Source of the DNA: Dehalococcoidia bacterium
GTDB taxonomy: Bacteria > Chloroflexota > Dehalococcoidia > Lucifugimonadales > UBA3495
Direction of reading: 5' to 3'
DNA: 64,000 nucleotides
Assembly: GCA_965199995.1 (NCBI GenBank)
Contig: OZ241328.1
Location: forward strand, 1,484,627-1,548,626
Shown: positions 9,678 through 16,359 of the stretch, in pieces
Layout: each line of letters begins with the position of its first letter
Numbering within the stretch: position 1 is the stretch's first letter
Notes under the pieces: generated by a model
Told to the model about the DNA's origin: nothing
The model's input: the letters and a program-made list of their open reading frames with translations, nothing else
Database searches by the model: none
Translations under genes and position numbers: made by a program

Positions 9678-9930
9678 TTTGCACCTCCCATAGCCAGCAT
9701 CGGAGTAAGAAATCCGGTTAGCCCCGATGTCCCCCAGGGCGGGGAGCGATGATACCATAACCTCCTTGAAATAAGCATAGCAGTTTTTGAGGCAGCGCGC
9801 TGTAATTCCAGAATAACGCATTGTTGATACGCATTGGTATCGACGCCCAGCCTCGGTCCTCTGCCCGCCCCTCCCACTTTCACGGGAAGGTAAGCATTCT
9901 ACTACGGAGGCCGTTTCTTCAAAACCCAGT

Positions 9931-10209
9931 GGATTCCCGCTTTCGCGGGAATGACGGGGGGAGGAGGCGGTATACTGCCATCAGGGAAGATCGGAGCGGC
10001 AAGCCATTACCAGCGCGGGAATGACGGGGGGAGGAGGCGGTATACTGCCATCAGGGAAGATCGGAGCGGCAAGCCATTACCAGCGCGGGAATGACGGGGG
10101 GAGGAGGCGGTATACTGCCATCAGGGAAGATCGGAGCGGCAAGCCATTACCAGCGCGGGAATGACGGGGGAGGAGGCGGTATACTGCCATCAGGGAAGAT
10201 CGGAGCGGC
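9931..10209. repeat. tandem array with a 70-bp unit and about 3.8 head-to-tail copies, seeded by a family-1 REP palindrome
   Basis: Units start at 9945, 10015, 10085 and 10155 (gcgggaatgacggggggaggaggcggtatactgccatcagggaagatcggagcggcaagccattaccagc). Copies 1-3 are identical as far as I can read. Copy 4 lacks one G and is truncated. The period is not a multiple of 3, and there are no spacers. Confidence 0.95.
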
Positions 10210-10225
10210 CCAGGGCCTTTCGGGA

Positions 10226-11251
10226 TTAAAGGGACTGTACCGTGAGGGCTTCCGGGTTGAGGGTGGAGTGGTTGAGGAATTCCAGCGCAGCCGAATATGG
10301 CTCAGCCTCCCGGGAGGAGACGAGCTCCAATTGTACTAGTAGCTTAGGGTCTGTCTGCACCAAACGGCGCAAACGGCGCACTAACTCCTCTTCGACTACC
10401 TCAAGGAATTCCTGAGACCGGTGTTCGCCGCGGCGTCTAGCCAGGTTGCCGCTGGATTCCAGGAAGCCGCGATGCTCCTGAAATTTTACCCAAAGCTCTT
10501 CAATACCCTGCCCGGTGTGGGCTGCTGTCAAAGTCACGGGTGGCAGCCACTCCGGGGTGGTCAGCGACATATGGAGCATAGCGGTAATCGTCGCGACCAT
10601 CCGGTCGGCGCCGTCCCGGTCGGCTTTGTTCACCACATACAGGTCGGCAATCTCCAACACCCCTGCCTTGAGGGCCTGAATGGAGTCGCCCGCTTCGGGG
10701 ATGAGGGCTACGGCCACGGTGTCGGCCACCCCCATGATGCCCAGTTCCGTCTGCCCCACGCCCACGGTCTCTACTATAACCACTTCAAAACCGGCGGCGT
10801 CCAAAGCGCGAGTGATTCCTTTGACGATACGGGGCAGTCCCCCCATCTGTCCGCGAGTGGCAATGCTGCGGATGAACACGCCGGAATCGAGGTAGTGCCG
10901 CTGCATCCGAATACGGTCGCCAAGCAAAGCCCCGCCACTGAAAGGGCTAGTAGGGTCAACAGCCACAATGCCCACCCGCTGGCCCTGTTCCCGCAACAGC
11001 CGGGTGAGCTGGTCAACGATGGTGCTTTTCCCGGCGCCCGGAGGGCCGGTTATGCCTATGGTGTAAGCCCGGCCGGTGTGGGGGTCTATATCCCGCATCA
11101 CCTCCGCAGCCGAAGGGTCGCCTCGCTCCAACATAGAGATGACCCGGGACAAGGCGCGCTGCTCGCCGGACAATAGCCTGCTGGCTAAATCAGACAACGC
11201 CCGCCCTCTTCTCCCGGGATTCGCGCCGGACACAAAGGGGAACAGGCGCAA
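10226..11251 (-). CDS. meaB: MeaB/ArgK-type G3E-family GTPase (methylmalonyl-CoA mutase accessory protein family)
   Basis: It has the P-loop GITGPPGAGKST, then AVDPTSPFSGGALLGDRIRM, and NKADR. Confidence 0.85.
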   Translation of the reverse strand: MRLFPFVSGANPGRRGRALSDLASRLLSGEQRALSRVISMLERGDPSAAEVMRDIDPHTGRAYTIGITGPPGAGKSTIVDQLTRLLREQGQRVGIVAVDPTSPFSGGALLGDRIRMQRHYLDSGVFIRSIATRGQMGGLPRIVKGITRALDAAGFEVVIVETVGVGQTELGIMGVADTVAVALIPEAGDSIQALKAGVLEIADLYVVNKADRDGADRMVATITAMLHMSLTTPEWLPPVTLTAAHTGQGIEELWVKFQEHRGFLESSGNLARRRGEHRSQEFLEVVEEELVRRLRRLVQTDPKLLVQLELVSSREAEPYSAALEFLNHSTLNPEALTVQSL

Positions 11252-11289: not shown

Positions 11290-13488
11290 CTAGTGGCGAA
11301 ACTGGCTGCCGAATCCCTTGGCGCCGGCCGTAATCAGCAGGTCGGGCCGGTTGCCCCAGCGTTTGAGGAAACGCCCAAAGTTCTTGCGAGAAAGTTCATC
11401 CCGCTGATTGTCGTCCAACTCCGTCCATTGCCGGTGTTCGTGGCGAACCAGCGGCAAGGACGAGTCGGCCACCACCCGGTAGCCTTTATCCTTAAACTGG
11501 AAGCAGTAGTCAATATCCAGGTTGCGGTAGAAGCGGAATGCCTCGCGCATCAGCCCAACAGTATTAACCGCCTCGCGCCGGAAGGACATACAGTAGGCTT
11601 GCATCGCGTCGGCTTCGCCGCGGTCCACTTCTTCGTGGAAGTGCTGCATATCATCGGTGGTCAGCCCGTAAGGACCGAATATGCCAACGGTAGGATCGCT
11701 TAGCTGTTGGGAAACAGGGCCGAGAATCTCGCCCACAATCTCCGCGGAGCCGTCCACTATGATGATGTACTTTCCCAAGCTTTGCTTGATGCCAATGTTT
11801 TTGCTGGCGGCATCGCCGATGACATGATCGCAGTGGATGACCCGCAGATTTTCATGCTCCTGTTGCATCGCCTCCAACATCTCGCCGGTACCGTCGGTGG
11901 AGCCGCTGTCAATCACAATGATTTCGGCGGAGTGTTCTTCCGAGTGGCGCAACATTCCGTTGACACAGCGACGGACGTCCTCAGGATAGCCATAAGCATT
12001 CAGGATGAAAGTAAAGTCATACAGAGAAGGCTCATGGAGGCGCGAAGGCACTTCCCTGGAAGAGGACACGGAGTGCCATATATCCAGGCGGCGCTCCATT
12101 GGCGTCTTGGGGCGGACGCGAGAGCCGCCCGGAGCATCTTCGACCACGTAGCCGTCGGAAGAGAGCCGGGCCCGCACAGAATCGGCGGATTCCCAAGTCT
12201 GCTGTCGGCGCAGGGATTCCCGCTCCCGGATTGAGGCGATAACTTCCTCGCCGACTTCATTAGCGGTCTGGGTTTTGTGCAGGTCGAGGCCAAACATTCG
12301 GTCGAAGTCTAGCAACAGCTCCAGCTTGGCTTTGCCGGGAAGATGGGAGCGCACCGTTTCCCAAGTTACCGCTAAAGCGCCGGGCAGGTTCAGGTCCGAG
12401 TCCACTGCTTCCCAGAAGCGCCGGCGGTACTCCCCGGCCTCGGCATTATGGCAGTTGGTATCCGGCTCCATGCTCCATTGCCAGACATGCGAACGCAGAT
12501 TCGTCAGGGCTTTTTCCGCCGCTTTGAGCGAGGTGAAAGTGAAGTTCATGCGGTGGCGATAGAGAACCGTCATACATAGATAACGGAAGGCGAGTGGGTC
12601 GAACCCCCGTTCAATCAATTCCTCAACCAGGAAAACGTTGCCGGAGGACTTCGCCATTTTCGCGCCGTCGGCCAGCAAGTGTTGCCCATGCACCCAGTAG
12701 CGGACATGCTGATCCCCGAAGGCCGCTTCACTCTGGGCAATCTCGTCCTCGTGATGGGGGAAGATATTGTCCACGCCGCCGGTATGAATATCGAAGAAAT
12801 CCCCCAAGTACTTGGAGGCCATGGCCGAGCATTCGATATGCCAGCCCGGGAATCCTTCTCCCCAGGGGCTGTCCCACTTGACGTCCCGGCCGGGTTCGGC
12901 GGCCTTCCACAGGGTGAAATCGCGGGGGTCTCGCTTCAGCGGATCGGCCTCGGCCCGAACGCCTTCCAGCAGGTCGGCCCCGGTGTTGCGGGAGAGCTTG
13001 CCATAGCCGGAAAAACTGGGGACATCAAAATAAATGTTGCCGCCGCGCTCATAGGCGTGGCCCCTTTCCAGCAGCGAGCCAACGATGGAAAGCATTTCCG
13101 GGATATGCTCGCTGGCCCACGGGAAAACCTGGGCCTCCATAATGTTAAGACGGGCTTCGTCGCGGTGGAATCTCCCGGCGTATACCTGGGCGATTTCCTG
13201 AACTGTCTTGCCTTCGGCCAAAGCGGCGAGAATCATCTTGTCGCCGCCGGTTTCCACCAACTCCTGCCTCATGTGGCCCACGTCGGTGATGTTCTTGACG
13301 TGCTGGACTTCAATGCCGTGGTGCATCAGGGCGCGGCGAATCCAATCGGCCATCATATAGGTTCGCAGGTTGCCGATGTGGGCATCCCGATATACCGTCG
13401 GACCGCAGGTGTACATCCGAATGACCCCCGGCTCCGCCGGTTCAATCTCTTCTACCTGCTTGGACAGGGTGTTATATATGCGAAACAA
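11290..13488 (-). CDS. cysS: cysteine--tRNA ligase with a C-terminal GT-A (glycosyltransferase family 2-like) domain fused in frame
   Basis: Residues 1 to about 462 form a complete class-I CysRS (TCGPTVY, HIGN, WHIECS, KMAKSSGN, DSDLNLPGALA, C-terminal RARLSSDGYVVEDAPGGSRVR). Residues from about 489 to 732 have GT2 hallmarks (FTFILNAYG.., EIIVIDSGSTDGT, YIIIVDGS, C-terminal NLDIDYCFQFKDKGYRV). It uses a TTG start, and there is no stop between the two parts. Confidence 0.85.
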   Translation of the reverse strand: MFRIYNTLSKQVEEIEPAEPGVIRMYTCGPTVYRDAHIGNLRTYMMADWIRRALMHHGIEVQHVKNITDVGHMRQELVETGGDKMILAALAEGKTVQEIAQVYAGRFHRDEARLNIMEAQVFPWASEHIPEMLSIVGSLLERGHAYERGGNIYFDVPSFSGYGKLSRNTGADLLEGVRAEADPLKRDPRDFTLWKAAEPGRDVKWDSPWGEGFPGWHIECSAMASKYLGDFFDIHTGGVDNIFPHHEDEIAQSEAAFGDQHVRYWVHGQHLLADGAKMAKSSGNVFLVEELIERGFDPLAFRYLCMTVLYRHRMNFTFTSLKAAEKALTNLRSHVWQWSMEPDTNCHNAEAGEYRRRFWEAVDSDLNLPGALAVTWETVRSHLPGKAKLELLLDFDRMFGLDLHKTQTANEVGEEVIASIRERESLRRQQTWESADSVRARLSSDGYVVEDAPGGSRVRPKTPMERRLDIWHSVSSSREVPSRLHEPSLYDFTFILNAYGYPEDVRRCVNGMLRHSEEHSAEIIVIDSGSTDGTGEMLEAMQQEHENLRVIHCDHVIGDAASKNIGIKQSLGKYIIIVDGSAEIVGEILGPVSQQLSDPTVGIFGPYGLTTDDMQHFHEEVDRGEADAMQAYCMSFRREAVNTVGLMREAFRFYRNLDIDYCFQFKDKGYRVVADSSLPLVRHEHRQWTELDDNQRDELSRKNFGRFLKRWGNRPDLLITAGAKGFGSQFRH

Positions 13489-13621
13489 GGCAACCGCCCC
13501 TTTCTGCTGCCCTTCAGCCTAGCTAAGGATTGGGCTAGTTTACCACGGGGCAACAGCCCTTGCTACCCCGCCGCTAGTCTCGGCGACACTGCAAGCAGCA
13601 AGACAATTAAATTTCGGAAGG

Positions 13622-13645
13622 TAAAAATCCGAGCTGGTGCTCGGG
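13622..13645 (-). terminator. possible intrinsic terminator after the decayed CoA-transferase genes
   Basis: The minus strand reads CCGAGCaccaGCTCGGaTTTTTa. The stem is short (6 bp), so support is weak. Confidence 0.35.
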
Positions 13646-13990
13646 ATCCTGACCGGGTGCCAAGCCTCCAGCGCTTCCAATCCTAACGGCCCGGTTCCGC
13701 CGACAGCGATAACCAGACTAGAAACCTACCGGACGCTCAATAGCGGTGAGGGCGTTTCTGTCGCAAACCTCTTTCGTCCGCCGCAAGATGGTCAAGACTT
13801 GGTCAACCGCAGCCAGGCCATAGAAATCAGCTCCGTCCAGTCAGTGGCCCAGCCGGTTCAATATCGGCGTTGGGGATGGCGAAACGACTTCGGAACCCGG
13901 CAGCCCCGGCCCAGACCTAGGCGCGACAGGCACAACCGGCGAGGGCAGCCCTTAACGCCTCCAGCCGGAGCGCCGAAAGTCGCCGCCAAC

Positions 13991-15152
13991 CTAATCCGCT
14001 GCCTGCACTACCGCTCCGGCGGTTTTCAGCACCGATATTTCCACCGCTCCGTAACCGGCTTCGGCCAAAATCTCATCCGTTTCCGCGCGCAGGAACAGGG
14101 GTGGGGCGGCCCAGCCGCACCGGAGTTTCCGACAGCTTGGGGATAACACCGAAATGGTCGGCCATCCCCATTCTCGGATTCTCCCGGCTCACGACTAGCC
14201 CGGCCCGGCGGACGGGAGGGTCGGCGTGGAACTCGGGAACGCCTAGGTTTGCCATTACGCTGACAGCCGTGGGGGCCAGCAGTTCCCGCAGCACTCGCGA
14301 TCATGGCCGGACAGGATGTCAGACAGCGCAGCGCACAGATCGGCATCCTAACGCTATCGGCTTTCTCTGTCGCTGAAGCGGGCGTCATCGGCCAGGCTGG
14401 TGAACTCCGGCAGCCGGATCATTTCGCTCCAAGCGCCGTTGTCGGGGCAATGCAGATACAACCAGCCGTCGGCGGCCCGATAAAGCCGCGACAGAGCCGA
14501 AAATCCGCGCACGCCCAGCCCTTCGGGTTCAGAACGCTGGAGACCTTCATAGTCGAGGAAATAGGGCGACTGCAACATACAGGCGGTCAAAGCCAGCCCC
14601 CCGTCCACCGATTGCCCCCGCCGGTGCGCTGGCGTTCATGCAGGGCCAAAGCCACGGAATAGGCTCCCAGCAGGCCGGCAGCATAGTCATTCATCGGGTA
14701 GGGCAACAGTGGGGAGCGGCGTCCCGGCCTCCCCGGCGGACCTGAATGCCGGTGGTAGCTTGCGCCAATTGTTCCCACCCCGGCCTCGAGGCCCAGGGGC
14801 CGTCATAGCCGAAGGCGTTTAGGGAGGTATAGACAATGTCGGGGCACCGCTTCCGAACTTCATCATATCCCAATCCCAGGCGGGCCAGACTGCCCTTGCG
14901 GATATTCTCTACCACCACGCCGGCGGTCTCCACCAGCTCCCAGAATACTTGCCTTCCCTGCTCATTCTTCAAGTCTATTTGGATGCTGCGTTTGCCGCGG
15001 TTTACGTCCAGATTCCCAGCGTAGTAATAGGGGCGAGACGGGTCATCAATCTTGATTACGTCAGCGCCGAACTCGCCCAGCGTCCGTCCGCAGGTGGGCC
15101 CGGCCAGCACGATGCAGAGGTCTAGCACTCGCACGCCGTCCAAGGCGGACAT
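13991..15152 (-). pseudogene. family III (CaiB/BaiF-type) CoA-transferase, disrupted by several frameshifts and two in-frame stops
   Basis: Homologous segments lie in different frames. They are MSALDGVRVLDLCIVLAGPTCG..ADVIKIDDP (to 14691), PMNDYAAGLLGAYSVALALHERQRTG (14587-14778), LDYEGL..YRAADGWLYLHCP (14354-14608), DADLCAALSDILSGHDRE after two TAG codons near 14340-14350, VPEFHADPP..FGVIPKLSETPVRLGRP (14073-14294), and PLFLRAETDEILAEAGYGAVEISVLKTAGAVV ending at 13991. Confidence 0.7.
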
Positions 15153-15175
15153 TGCGCTTTCGCCACCGGACGGGG

Positions 15176-16274
15176 CTACATGAAGAGTAGCTCTCCGCCC
15201 TTCGGTCATCGCGGTTGCGGTATATTCGCCCAGCATGGGCGCGCGCTGGGGCTTCGGCCCCGGCGTTCTCCGGAGGCGTATGGGAGCGCCCGGTTGTTTC
15301 ATCTGGCCATACTTGGCATCGTCTACCTCGACGACCATTCCACCGGCTATGGCGTGTTCATGGATCAGCCATTCATCCACCGTCTTGCAGATGGTGCAAG
15401 CTCCTCTCGTCTGGGCGATGGCGTCTTCCCATTCTTTGGCGGTCTTTTCCCGGAACAGGTTTTCCACCCGCTCCTGCCACATTTCGATAATATCGTTGCT
15501 TACTTCCGCTCCGTACAAATCCTCCAGGTCTTCAATCCACTCCGGGCGCTCCGCAGCCTGCAAAAACTGACTGGCGAAGCGCTGGTACATACCGTGGTTC
15601 TGGACGTAACGGCCATCGGCGCACTGGTATTCTGGTATTGATGAGACATGATGTTGCGGGGAAGCCGGAACAGGCCGGACGGGTTGACGTCGTGGAAATT
15701 GGACAGGTGGCGCCCCATGGCGGCGAACATAGCGCTGTGGAGAGGCGCCTTGATACGCTGCCCCGTCCGATGCGCTGCCGGGCATTCAGAGCCATCGCCA
15801 CAGACACCGAGCCTAGGACGGCCGCGAAGGAGATGGCGGAAGGCAGATGCAGGAACAACGGCTCGTCCATCCCTGCCACGCTCTGGTGCGCTCCGGTGGC
15901 AGCCCCGGCTATGGGTTTCCAGCCCCGTTAGTGCCTGTGGGGGCTGTCTCCCCGAAACCGGGAAGCGAGCAGTAGATGAGCCCGGGGTTATTATCCGCCG
16001 AGGCATAGCCAATTCCCAGCCGGTCAGCCACACCTGGGCGGAAGTTCTCAATCAAAACATCGGCCCAAGCTATCAGTTCTTTTGCCTGTTTCAGGCCAAC
16101 GAGCGACTTAAAGTCCAGCTCAACTGACCGCCTGCCCCGATTCCAGGTGGCGAAGGCCGGTTCGCAGCGAGCCGGGTCGCCGCCGGGCCTCTCTACTTTG
16201 ATTACGTCGGCCCCTTGCTCGGCCAATAGCATCCCCAGAAGCGGGCCCGGTATGTACTGCCCGAACTCTACCAC
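15176..16274 (-). pseudogene. family III (CaiB/BaiF-type) CoA-transferase, disrupted by at least three frameshifts
   Basis: The N-terminal part VVEFGQYIPGPLLGMLLAEQGADVIKVERPGGD..ENFRPGV..CSLPGFGE runs from 16274 to 15909. GWKPIAGAATG..FAAVLGSVSVAMALNARQR follows in a second frame, APLHSAMFAAMG in a third, and YQCADGRYV..KTVDEW..PIRLRRTPG..APMLGEYT in a fourth. The 3' boundary with the next copy is unclear. Confidence 0.65.
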
Positions 16275-16359
16275 TCGAGCGCAGCGCTCCTTGGTACTCC
16301 GGGGCGGTGCCTACGCTGGTTATGATATGGCTCCCTTTCCGTTTTGTTGACTGTTTTGG

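Follow-up and report, generated by a model that had tools for sequence, protein, structure and literature searches.

A predicted cysteinyl-tRNA synthetase carrying a conserved GT-A glycosyltransferase-like domain in Chloroflexota

Catalytic domains appended to aminoacyl-tRNA synthetases (aaRSs) have been a repeated source of new biology; tRNA-dependent lipid aminoacylation, for instance, came to light through LysX and ErdS. Both join an aaRS and a second transferase domain in one polypeptide (LysRS-MprF in M. tuberculosis and AspRS-DUF2156 in fungi), and both are extra paralogs beside a housekeeping aaRS. Their appended domain is a DUF2156/MprF aminoacyl-tRNA transferase, which the aaRS feeds (PMC9437257; PMC7334510). 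A relative of cysteinyl-tRNA synthetase (CysRS) with a link to sugar chemistry is MshC, the mycothiol Cys:GlcN-Ins ligase (TIGR03447, PDB 3C8Z), whose pathway couples cysteine ligation with a glycosyltransferase (GT) step. The GT partner of MshC, MshA, is a separate protein and, like BshA, belongs to GT-B/GT4 and not to GT-A. A 2022 review of aaRS diversification names only CysRS* and MshC as CysRS variants (PMC9437257), the latter being a CysRS paralog (PMC2922099; PMC9437257). Full-text literature searches returned no description of a CysRS-glycosyltransferase fusion. Here, we describe such an architecture in a Dehalococcoidia bacterium (GTDB lineage Chloroflexota; Dehalococcoidia; Lucifugimonadales; UBA3495; GenBank assembly GCA_965199995.1, contig OZ241328.1, positions 1,484,627 to 1,548,626 of the forward strand). 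Within this stretch of 64,000 nucleotides (nt), hereafter the window, whose positions are used for all coordinates, one gene on the minus strand (11290..13488), here called cysS-GT, encodes a predicted CysRS followed by a domain of predicted GT-A fold.

The gene is complete, starts with TTG and forms one uninterrupted open reading frame (ORF) of 732 codons plus stop in the ORF list. A Shine-Dalgarno-like sequence, GAAAGGGG, lies a few bases 5' of the start, and GC content shows no break across the domain junction. The identical product of 732 amino acids (aa) was called in three independent short-read (Logan) assemblies and on a 3.07-Mb contig. Across species, residues 1-732 were recovered as a single in-frame tblastn high-scoring segment pair in 78 of the best 80 loci, among which were long-read chromosomes and short-read contigs assembled with SPAdes and MEGAHIT; of the two exceptions, one was cut by a contig end and one carried an N-terminal frameshift. 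A full-length query retrieved fused proteins of 714-742 aa in at least 120 clusters at 90% identity, and a scan of one genome per GTDB species found the GT domain encoded by at least 562 species representatives. The recurrence across assemblies, the in-frame species loci and the full-length clusters together lead us to reject an artefactual junction. The original prediction, made from the sequence alone, of an in-frame fusion was borne out by the ORF list, the Logan assemblies and the species loci: the ORF is, with near certainty, a genuine single fused gene. Production of a separate GT protein from a conserved internal start was also considered and rejected, since the candidate start, Met464, is not conserved.

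Residues 1-462 resemble canonical CysRS (E. coli CysS, PDB 1LI5/1U0B; TIGR00435) from end to end, in their motifs, zinc site and anticodon-binding domain, and depart from it in reading HIGN for HIGH and in being followed by 270 extra C-terminal residues that form the predicted GT-A domain. The catalytic region (residues 16-325; 12514..13443, on the minus strand like all features of the gene) matches Pfam PF01406 (tRNA-synt_1e) with an E-value of 6e-96. It is followed by a helical bundle and a C-terminal alpha/beta anticodon-binding domain (residues 326-462; 12103..12513), which were delimited with TIGR00435, alignment and Foldseek. The CysRS landmarks quoted in the original prediction are all present in the translation: the HIGH-motif variant HIGN (residues 37-40; 13369..13380), the WHIECS cysteine/zinc pocket (residues 216-221; 12826..12843; also located by alignment to CysRS structures), KMAKS in the place of the KMSKS loop (residues 277-281; 12646..12660), DSDLNLPGALA (residues 363-373) and DGYVVEDAPGGSRVR (residues 445-459). 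An HHEDE motif is also found in this half. Among the 79 species compared, KMAKS, H37, G39 and N40 are invariant, residue 38 being I in 76 and V in three. The same holds for C28, W216, H217, C220, H245 and E249, and for R427, D436, R439 and D451 in the anticodon domain. From alignment to solved CysRS structures and from what is known of E. coli CysRS, we take C28, C220, H245 and E249 to be the zinc ligands.

Profile and structure comparisons assign this half to CysRS. The NCBIfam cysS equivalog TIGR00435 scored 421.7 bits (cut-off 340) over residues 3-459 and model positions 2-464 of 466. The CysRS subtype models stayed below their cut-offs (NF011108, 443 versus 780; NF011107, 312 versus 744), and Pfam CysS_C taken alone was sub-threshold (18.9 versus 23). 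Like B. burgdorferi CysRS, the fusion belongs to the subtype that has a 'DVGHMRQE...GGDK' insertion; the half aligns end to end with solved CysRS structures, and B. burgdorferi CysRS was matched to its C-terminus. The best Foldseek match of the full-length structure model was 1u0b, the E. coli CysRS-tRNACys complex, with a target-normalized TM-score (TMt) of 0.88 and a root mean square deviation (rmsd) of 3.4 Å over 461 residues. No second cysS and no tRNA gene occurs within the 64-kb window, and no tRNACys gene was detected in 91 loci. With the cysS cut-off passed, the anticodon-binding domain kept and the close match to 1u0b, the earlier call of a bona fide CysRS holds up: residues 1-462 likely constitute a functional CysRS, judging from sequence and model, and the fusion is probably the working CysRS of the lineage. 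In this it differs from LysX and ErdS, as it looks like a main synthetase and not like an additional paralog. It also differs in the appended domain, which has a predicted nucleotide-sugar GT-A fold; neither DUF2156 nor MprF was among the nine Pfam families matched by the window protein at E ≤ 0.1.

The C-terminal half (residues 490-711; 11356..12021) was recognized as a GT-A, GT2-like domain by PF00535, AlphaFold and Foldseek. Pfam PF00535 (Glycos_transf_2) matched residues 495-584 (E 1.6e-14; 54.6 bits versus a gathering score of 23.3), and the C-terminal part searched alone reached 56.9 bits; tRNA-synt_1e and Glycos_transf_2 had both been anticipated in the original prediction. An AlphaFold2 model of the domain, based on a 75-sequence alignment, had a predicted local distance difference test score (pLDDT) of 91.7 and a predicted template modelling score (pTM) of 0.90. 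All 50 top PDB matches listed by Foldseek for this model were GT-A glycosyltransferases (E down to 5.5e-13; query-normalized TM-score, TMq, up to 0.73), including the Leptospira GT 6p61, the fucosyltransferase WrtF, ppGalNAc-T2 (TMq 0.72) and the chondroitin polymerase K4CP. We are confident, on the basis of the model, that this half adopts a GT-A fold, in agreement with the appended GT-A module that had been proposed. The landmarks quoted for it are in place as well, namely FTFILNAYG (residues 492-500), EIIVIDSGSTDGT (522-534), YIIIVDGS (574-581) and NLDIDYCFQFKDKGYRV (656-672).

Compared with known GT2 enzymes of GT-A fold (PF00535; 6P61, WrtF 9OM*, K4CP 2Z87; also near GT27 ppGalNAc-T2), the domain shares the Rossmann-like fold and a canonical N-terminal half, in which VIDSGSTDGT ... 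KNIG ... IVD corresponds to the pattern VxDxGSTDGT ... KN.G ... xxD. It differs from them in having DxS-x-E for DxD, in the motifs of its acceptor half and in having been encountered exclusively as part of CysRS fusions. The acceptor half (residues 585-732) had no Pfam match and one marginal match to an NCBIfam rhamnosyltransferase. The GT-A core as defined by Taujale et al. consists of the DxD, the G-loop, the xED Asp at the start of helix alphaF and the C-His (PMC7185993). At the DxD position, which lies in DGSAE (residues 579-583; 11740..11754) and was located by alignment to solved GT2 enzymes, D579-G/A-S581 aligns with DAD of 6p61 and DSD of 5hea. The last Asp is replaced by Ser in all 79 species, and the motif is degenerate, as had been noted from the window sequence; D579, S581 and E583 are themselves invariant. 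The G-loop candidate G605-P-Y-G608 is also invariant. So is D658 in N-L-D-I-D, at the start of a predicted helix (residues 657-667), which makes NLD (residues 656-658; 11515..11523) the candidate xED motif. After the last beta-strand, H683, E684 and H685 are invariant (HEH, residues 683-685; 11434..11442), the two histidines being candidates for the metal-binding C-His. Going by sequence pattern and predicted secondary structure, the invariant candidates for G-loop, xED and C-His would follow one another in the canonical order. The candidate nucleotide-binding residue D527 and ~30 further polar residues of the domain are likewise invariant, and the family has invariant motifs of its own: HxDH (552-555), HFHE (616-619), DAMQxY (627-632), RFYRNLD (652-658) and HEHRxW (683-688). 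With a median pI of 5.1 the domain is acidic, and it ends in a variable C-terminal tail (residues 712-732; 11293..11355) of low model confidence, with pLDDT below 50 for residues 722-732. Sequence and model together lead us to lean towards a catalytically active GT.

The two halves are joined by residues 463-489 (12022..12102), a connector together with an N-terminal extension of the GT that is conserved in alignments and ordered in the model. These 27 residues have the family consensus RPKT..E..W..VSSS.EV.S and pLDDT values of 84-96. The full-length prediction, which had been suggested as a check on the fusion, reached a pTM of 0.84 and contained no disordered linker at this point. Since the connector is both conserved and ordered, the GT is probably attached firmly to the C-terminal anticodon-binding subdomain, a position that, going by 1u0b, would lie at the anticodon end of a bound tRNA and far from the aminoacylation site.

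Two further observations bear on the relationship between the halves. No stand-alone member of the GT subfamily occurred among the 120 matches listed: each one inspected was a fusion or a fusion fragment, and either carried CysRS C-terminal sequence or sat in a frameshifted fusion. The second concerns P0127 (locus L090, 10001-12238), a syntenic ortholog of the fusion with an intact ORF of 745 aa, known from three almost identical sequences whose contigs reach 724 kb. Its CysRS half has lost HIGN (now DINQ), WH (now PD), the zinc-ligand Glu and KMAKS (now KMATR), and its GT half carries D527N, D627H and D658A. By its sequence, P0127 is a double pseudo-enzyme, which implies that its genome has another CysRS. 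The joint decay of both catalytic sites points to linked functions. A metagenome scan for relatives of P0127 yielded nothing useful.

The fusion is widely distributed. An exhaustive search of 1.84 billion cluster representatives at 50% identity identified ~10 clusters of full-length fused proteins, 709-818 aa long and 42-70% identical to the window protein; stand-alone CysRSs (~440-510 aa) and fragments ranked after them. Fused members are labelled as SAR202 cluster, Dehalococcoidia, Chloroflexi/Chloroflexota, Roseiflexaceae and Candidatus Dormibacteria, and where NCBI/PGAP has named them, the name is simply 'cysteine--tRNA ligase'. Because the fusion is common and already held at NCBI under that name, the sequence itself is not new; the novelty originally claimed is reduced to the architecture, which is undescribed in the literature we found. 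When 125 CysRS domains were placed in a neighbor-joining (NJ) tree, built quickly from distances and lacking support values, nine fused representatives fell into one clade of ten, whose tenth member, from a short metagenome contig, is a true stand-alone CysRS of 474 aa. As the sequences suggest, a single fusion event within the Chloroflexota/Dormibacterota radiation, followed by vertical inheritance, is probable.

Selection on the two halves was compared through median Nei-Gojobori estimates of the ratio of nonsynonymous to synonymous substitution rates (dN/dS) over the 79 species sequences. The ratio was 0.10 for the CysRS catalytic region (residues 1-330), 0.28 for the anticodon-binding region (331-462), 0.23 for the connector (463-489), 0.11 for the GT domain (490-715) and 0.22 for the C-terminal tail (716-732). 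Both halves are under equally strong purifying selection, at ~0.10-0.11 for the catalytic region and the GT, and the GT value lies below that of the CysRS anticodon domain. A domain as constrained as the active-site domain of the synthetase is no decaying remnant.

Some fused members vary in architecture. Two of them, P0122 (locus L086, 2739-5147) and P0125, which belong to one clade that includes a Roseiflexaceae-labelled metagenome-assembled genome (MAG), have additional C-terminal tails of 50-60 residues that are extremely His-rich (e.g. HTHTHQHWPDHSHEHPHYH), a composition that suggests metal binding. P0130 (709 aa, from a Chloroflexota MAG) keeps the CysRS catalytic motifs intact and is without ~70 residues, corresponding to the C-terminal alpha/beta anticodon-binding subdomain and the conserved RPKT connector. 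At locus L004 (5900-6200), a long acidic low-complexity insertion separates the catalytic and anticodon-binding parts of CysRS, and the frame changes inside it, which may stem from an indel error in the long reads or from a real division into two genes.

Our best explanation is a working CysRS to which an active GT module is coupled in function, a reading that sequence and model bring close to an even chance and that we advance tentatively. Residues 1-462 would activate cysteine with ATP and charge tRNACys like canonical CysRS, and residues 490-711 would bind a nucleotide-sugar and catalyse sugar transfer. In the GT, D527 could contact the nucleotide, D579, E583 and H683/H685 could form an altered metal site, and D658 could act as the base. 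The acceptor would be something presented by CysRS or the CysRS-tRNA complex, because the GT has been seen only in fused form, has no conserved partner genes and decayed jointly with the synthetase in P0127. Given the position of the GT at the anticodon end of the enzyme, the likeliest acceptor would be the anticodon-arm side of the bound tRNACys. A GT directed at tRNACys is, on the model and the analogy with 1u0b, a possibility that we regard as doubtful. An active GT whose CysRS-presented acceptor is an anticodon-arm nucleoside of tRNACys, Cys-tRNACys or cysteine itself must be called unlikely.

Glycosylation in a tRNA anticodon loop has a precedent in QTGAL (B3GNTL1), the vertebrate galactosyl-queuosine enzyme, which is a GT2 family member of GT-A fold. 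The anticodon of tRNACys is GCA. Unlike the fusion, QTGAL is a stand-alone protein, and it acts on queuosine-34 of tRNATyr (PMC11755703); queuosine is reported to be confined to tRNAs with GUN anticodons (PMC12313893). Several points weigh against coupled GT activity. The canonical DxD is DxS, and the usual next Asp is Ala, in all 79 species. The acidity of the GT gives no hint of general RNA binding, and P0127, which represents one rare lineage, could be a copy in simple decay. Moreover, we know of no glycosylated nucleoside in tRNACys.

The altered DxD and the Ala in place of the usual next Asp also speak for the strongest rival, in which the GT-A domain would be a non-catalytic pseudo-GT. 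It would then have a role in structure, dimerisation or additional tRNA recognition, or would sense sugar nucleotides and so tune CysRS activity. Its ordered attachment to the anticodon-binding end in the model fits such a role, and C-terminal domains appended to class I aaRSs commonly add tRNA affinity or dimerisation. GT-A pseudoenzymes do exist, COSMC among them, but COSMC lost both DxD and xED (PMC7185993), whereas here only part of the DxD is changed. The candidate nucleotide Asp, xED Asp and C-His, along with the ~30 polar residues, have remained invariant, dN/dS is on a par with that of the CysRS catalytic core, and the acidic domain (pI ~5.1) is unlike general tRNA-binding appendages. 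We consider a pseudo-GT rather improbable.

A less probable alternative is that the polypeptide holds two independent enzymes, the GT acting on an unrelated small molecule, protein or envelope precursor, and that the fusion provides co-expression only. GT2 acceptors are very diverse, GTs that act on peptides and glycans are among the best fold matches, the domain itself is acidic, and no conserved tRNA-modification or thiol genes lie near the loci compared, all of which would suit such an arrangement. However, independence sits poorly with the lack of a stand-alone subfamily member among the 120 matches listed, with the retention of the fusion over phylum-level divergence, with a connector that is ordered and conserved and not a flexible tether, and with the joint decay of both active sites in P0127. 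We judge it to be quite unlikely.

Very unlikely, in our view, is a bifunctional enzyme of low-molecular-weight thiol synthesis, in which, on the pattern of MshA and MshC in mycothiol synthesis, the CysRS-like half would attach cysteine to an amino-sugar glycoside produced by the GT. MshC does share the catalytic fold and Cys-adenylate chemistry with the window protein as well as being a CysRS paralog, the full-length model matches MshC structures (TMt 0.83-0.86), and one distant locus (L087) has an Amidohydro_1/3 gene immediately after the fusion. Yet the MshC equivalog TIGR03447 failed, with 220.2 bits against a cut-off of 485.1 and over residues 2-375 only, whereas the cysS cut-off was passed. 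The whole anticodon-binding domain is kept under selection, in contrast to MshC chains of 413-414 residues; no deacetylase or acetyltransferase gene is a conserved neighbour in the loci compared; and the GT is predicted to be attached far from the aminoacylation site. With MshA and BshA being of GT-B/GT4 type, the analogy to MshA that accompanied the original prediction is weak, and its preference against a cysteinyl-thiol ligase is upheld by the MshC score and the retained anticodon domain. Finally, a lost stop or an indel joining adjacent cysS and GT2 genes is practically ruled out: although a first protein search gave only short 'proteins' (150-470 aa, many of them 250-470 aa), and the halves are called as separate overlapping genes in the ENA contigs L004 and L005, the short calls inspected begin within CysRS (e.g. 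at the Met of KMAKS) or come from error-prone, low-coverage long-read contigs where overlapping halves occupy different frames and meaB is likewise broken, and the exact product recurs in three short-read assemblies, with 78 of 80 species loci in frame and the connector conserved and ordered.

The gene downstream of cysS-GT encodes a meaB-type G3E GTPase (10226..11251, minus; PF03308 E 5e-89; TIGR00750 325 bits). The distance of 38 nt on the same strand given in the original prediction is correct if a TTG start is used; gene callers start the gene 54 nt later, and the linkage is confined to close relatives. A meaB gene lies downstream in 68 of 82 loci and is absent in the distant members L004, L086, L087, L088 and L090; it is probably not part of the system. 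No methylmalonyl-CoA mutase family protein was found among the neighbouring window products scanned. The next gene on the same strand is hpf, encoding a ribosome hibernation factor (start at 9821). In distant members, the fusion lies among housekeeping genes, including those for MetRS, a class Ic (Trp/Tyr-type) aaRS, a class II (tRNA-synt_2b) aaRS, RecO, a GlmU-like protein, phosphoribosyl pyrophosphate (PRPP) synthase and pyruvate kinase, a setting in keeping with a working CysRS, and no glyco, thiol or tRNA-modification gene is common to their neighbourhoods. A conserved operon partner was rejected on these grounds and because meaB is restricted to close relatives.

Other features of the surroundings were recorded. 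A 70-nt tandem repeat (9944-10239) in the interval from the meaB stop (10226) to the hpf start (9821) comprises three perfectly identical copies and a partial, diverged fourth, with strong local GC skew; three short-read Logan contigs end inside it, ~46 nt past meaB. Upstream of cysS-GT, a gene at 14003-16286 (minus) is broken into fragments that carry a CoA_transf_3 domain. The gene is a single ORF of 795-817 aa (stop to stop) in the relatives L006, L008, L019 and L040, and the window copy is interrupted by two frameshifts, near 14700 and 14610, as well as by at least one in-frame stop. A real pseudogene is probable, because the three Logan assemblies have gene calls fragmented in the same way. 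A hairpin resembling a terminator, CCGAGCACCAGCTCGG with a T-run after it, is located at 13629-13644 (minus), ~140 nt upstream of the cysS-GT start. The ~140-nt leader (13489-13644 region) had no Rfam match, and a T-box or other known RNA was rejected on that ground. An antisense ORF of 335 aa (12679-13686, plus) opposite the 5' part of cysS-GT is almost certainly non-coding, given that the sense frame has the tRNA-synt_1e match described above.

SAR202 bacteria are abundant in the ocean. An apparently housekeeping CysRS has kept a strongly conserved GT-type domain over a phylum-scale radiation that includes SAR202-labelled genomes and soil Dehalococcoidia, and annotation pipelines currently miss one of its domains in hundreds of genomes. 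Should the domain prove to be a pseudo-enzyme, it would represent a new type of aaRS accessory domain. If, on the other hand, the GT is active on tRNACys or a cysteine derivative, the fusion would reveal a new bacterial glycosylation of RNA or amino acids and a new mode of aaRS bifunctionality, and tRNA-linked glycosylation would be built into a synthetase in hundreds of species of abundant soil and ocean Chloroflexota.

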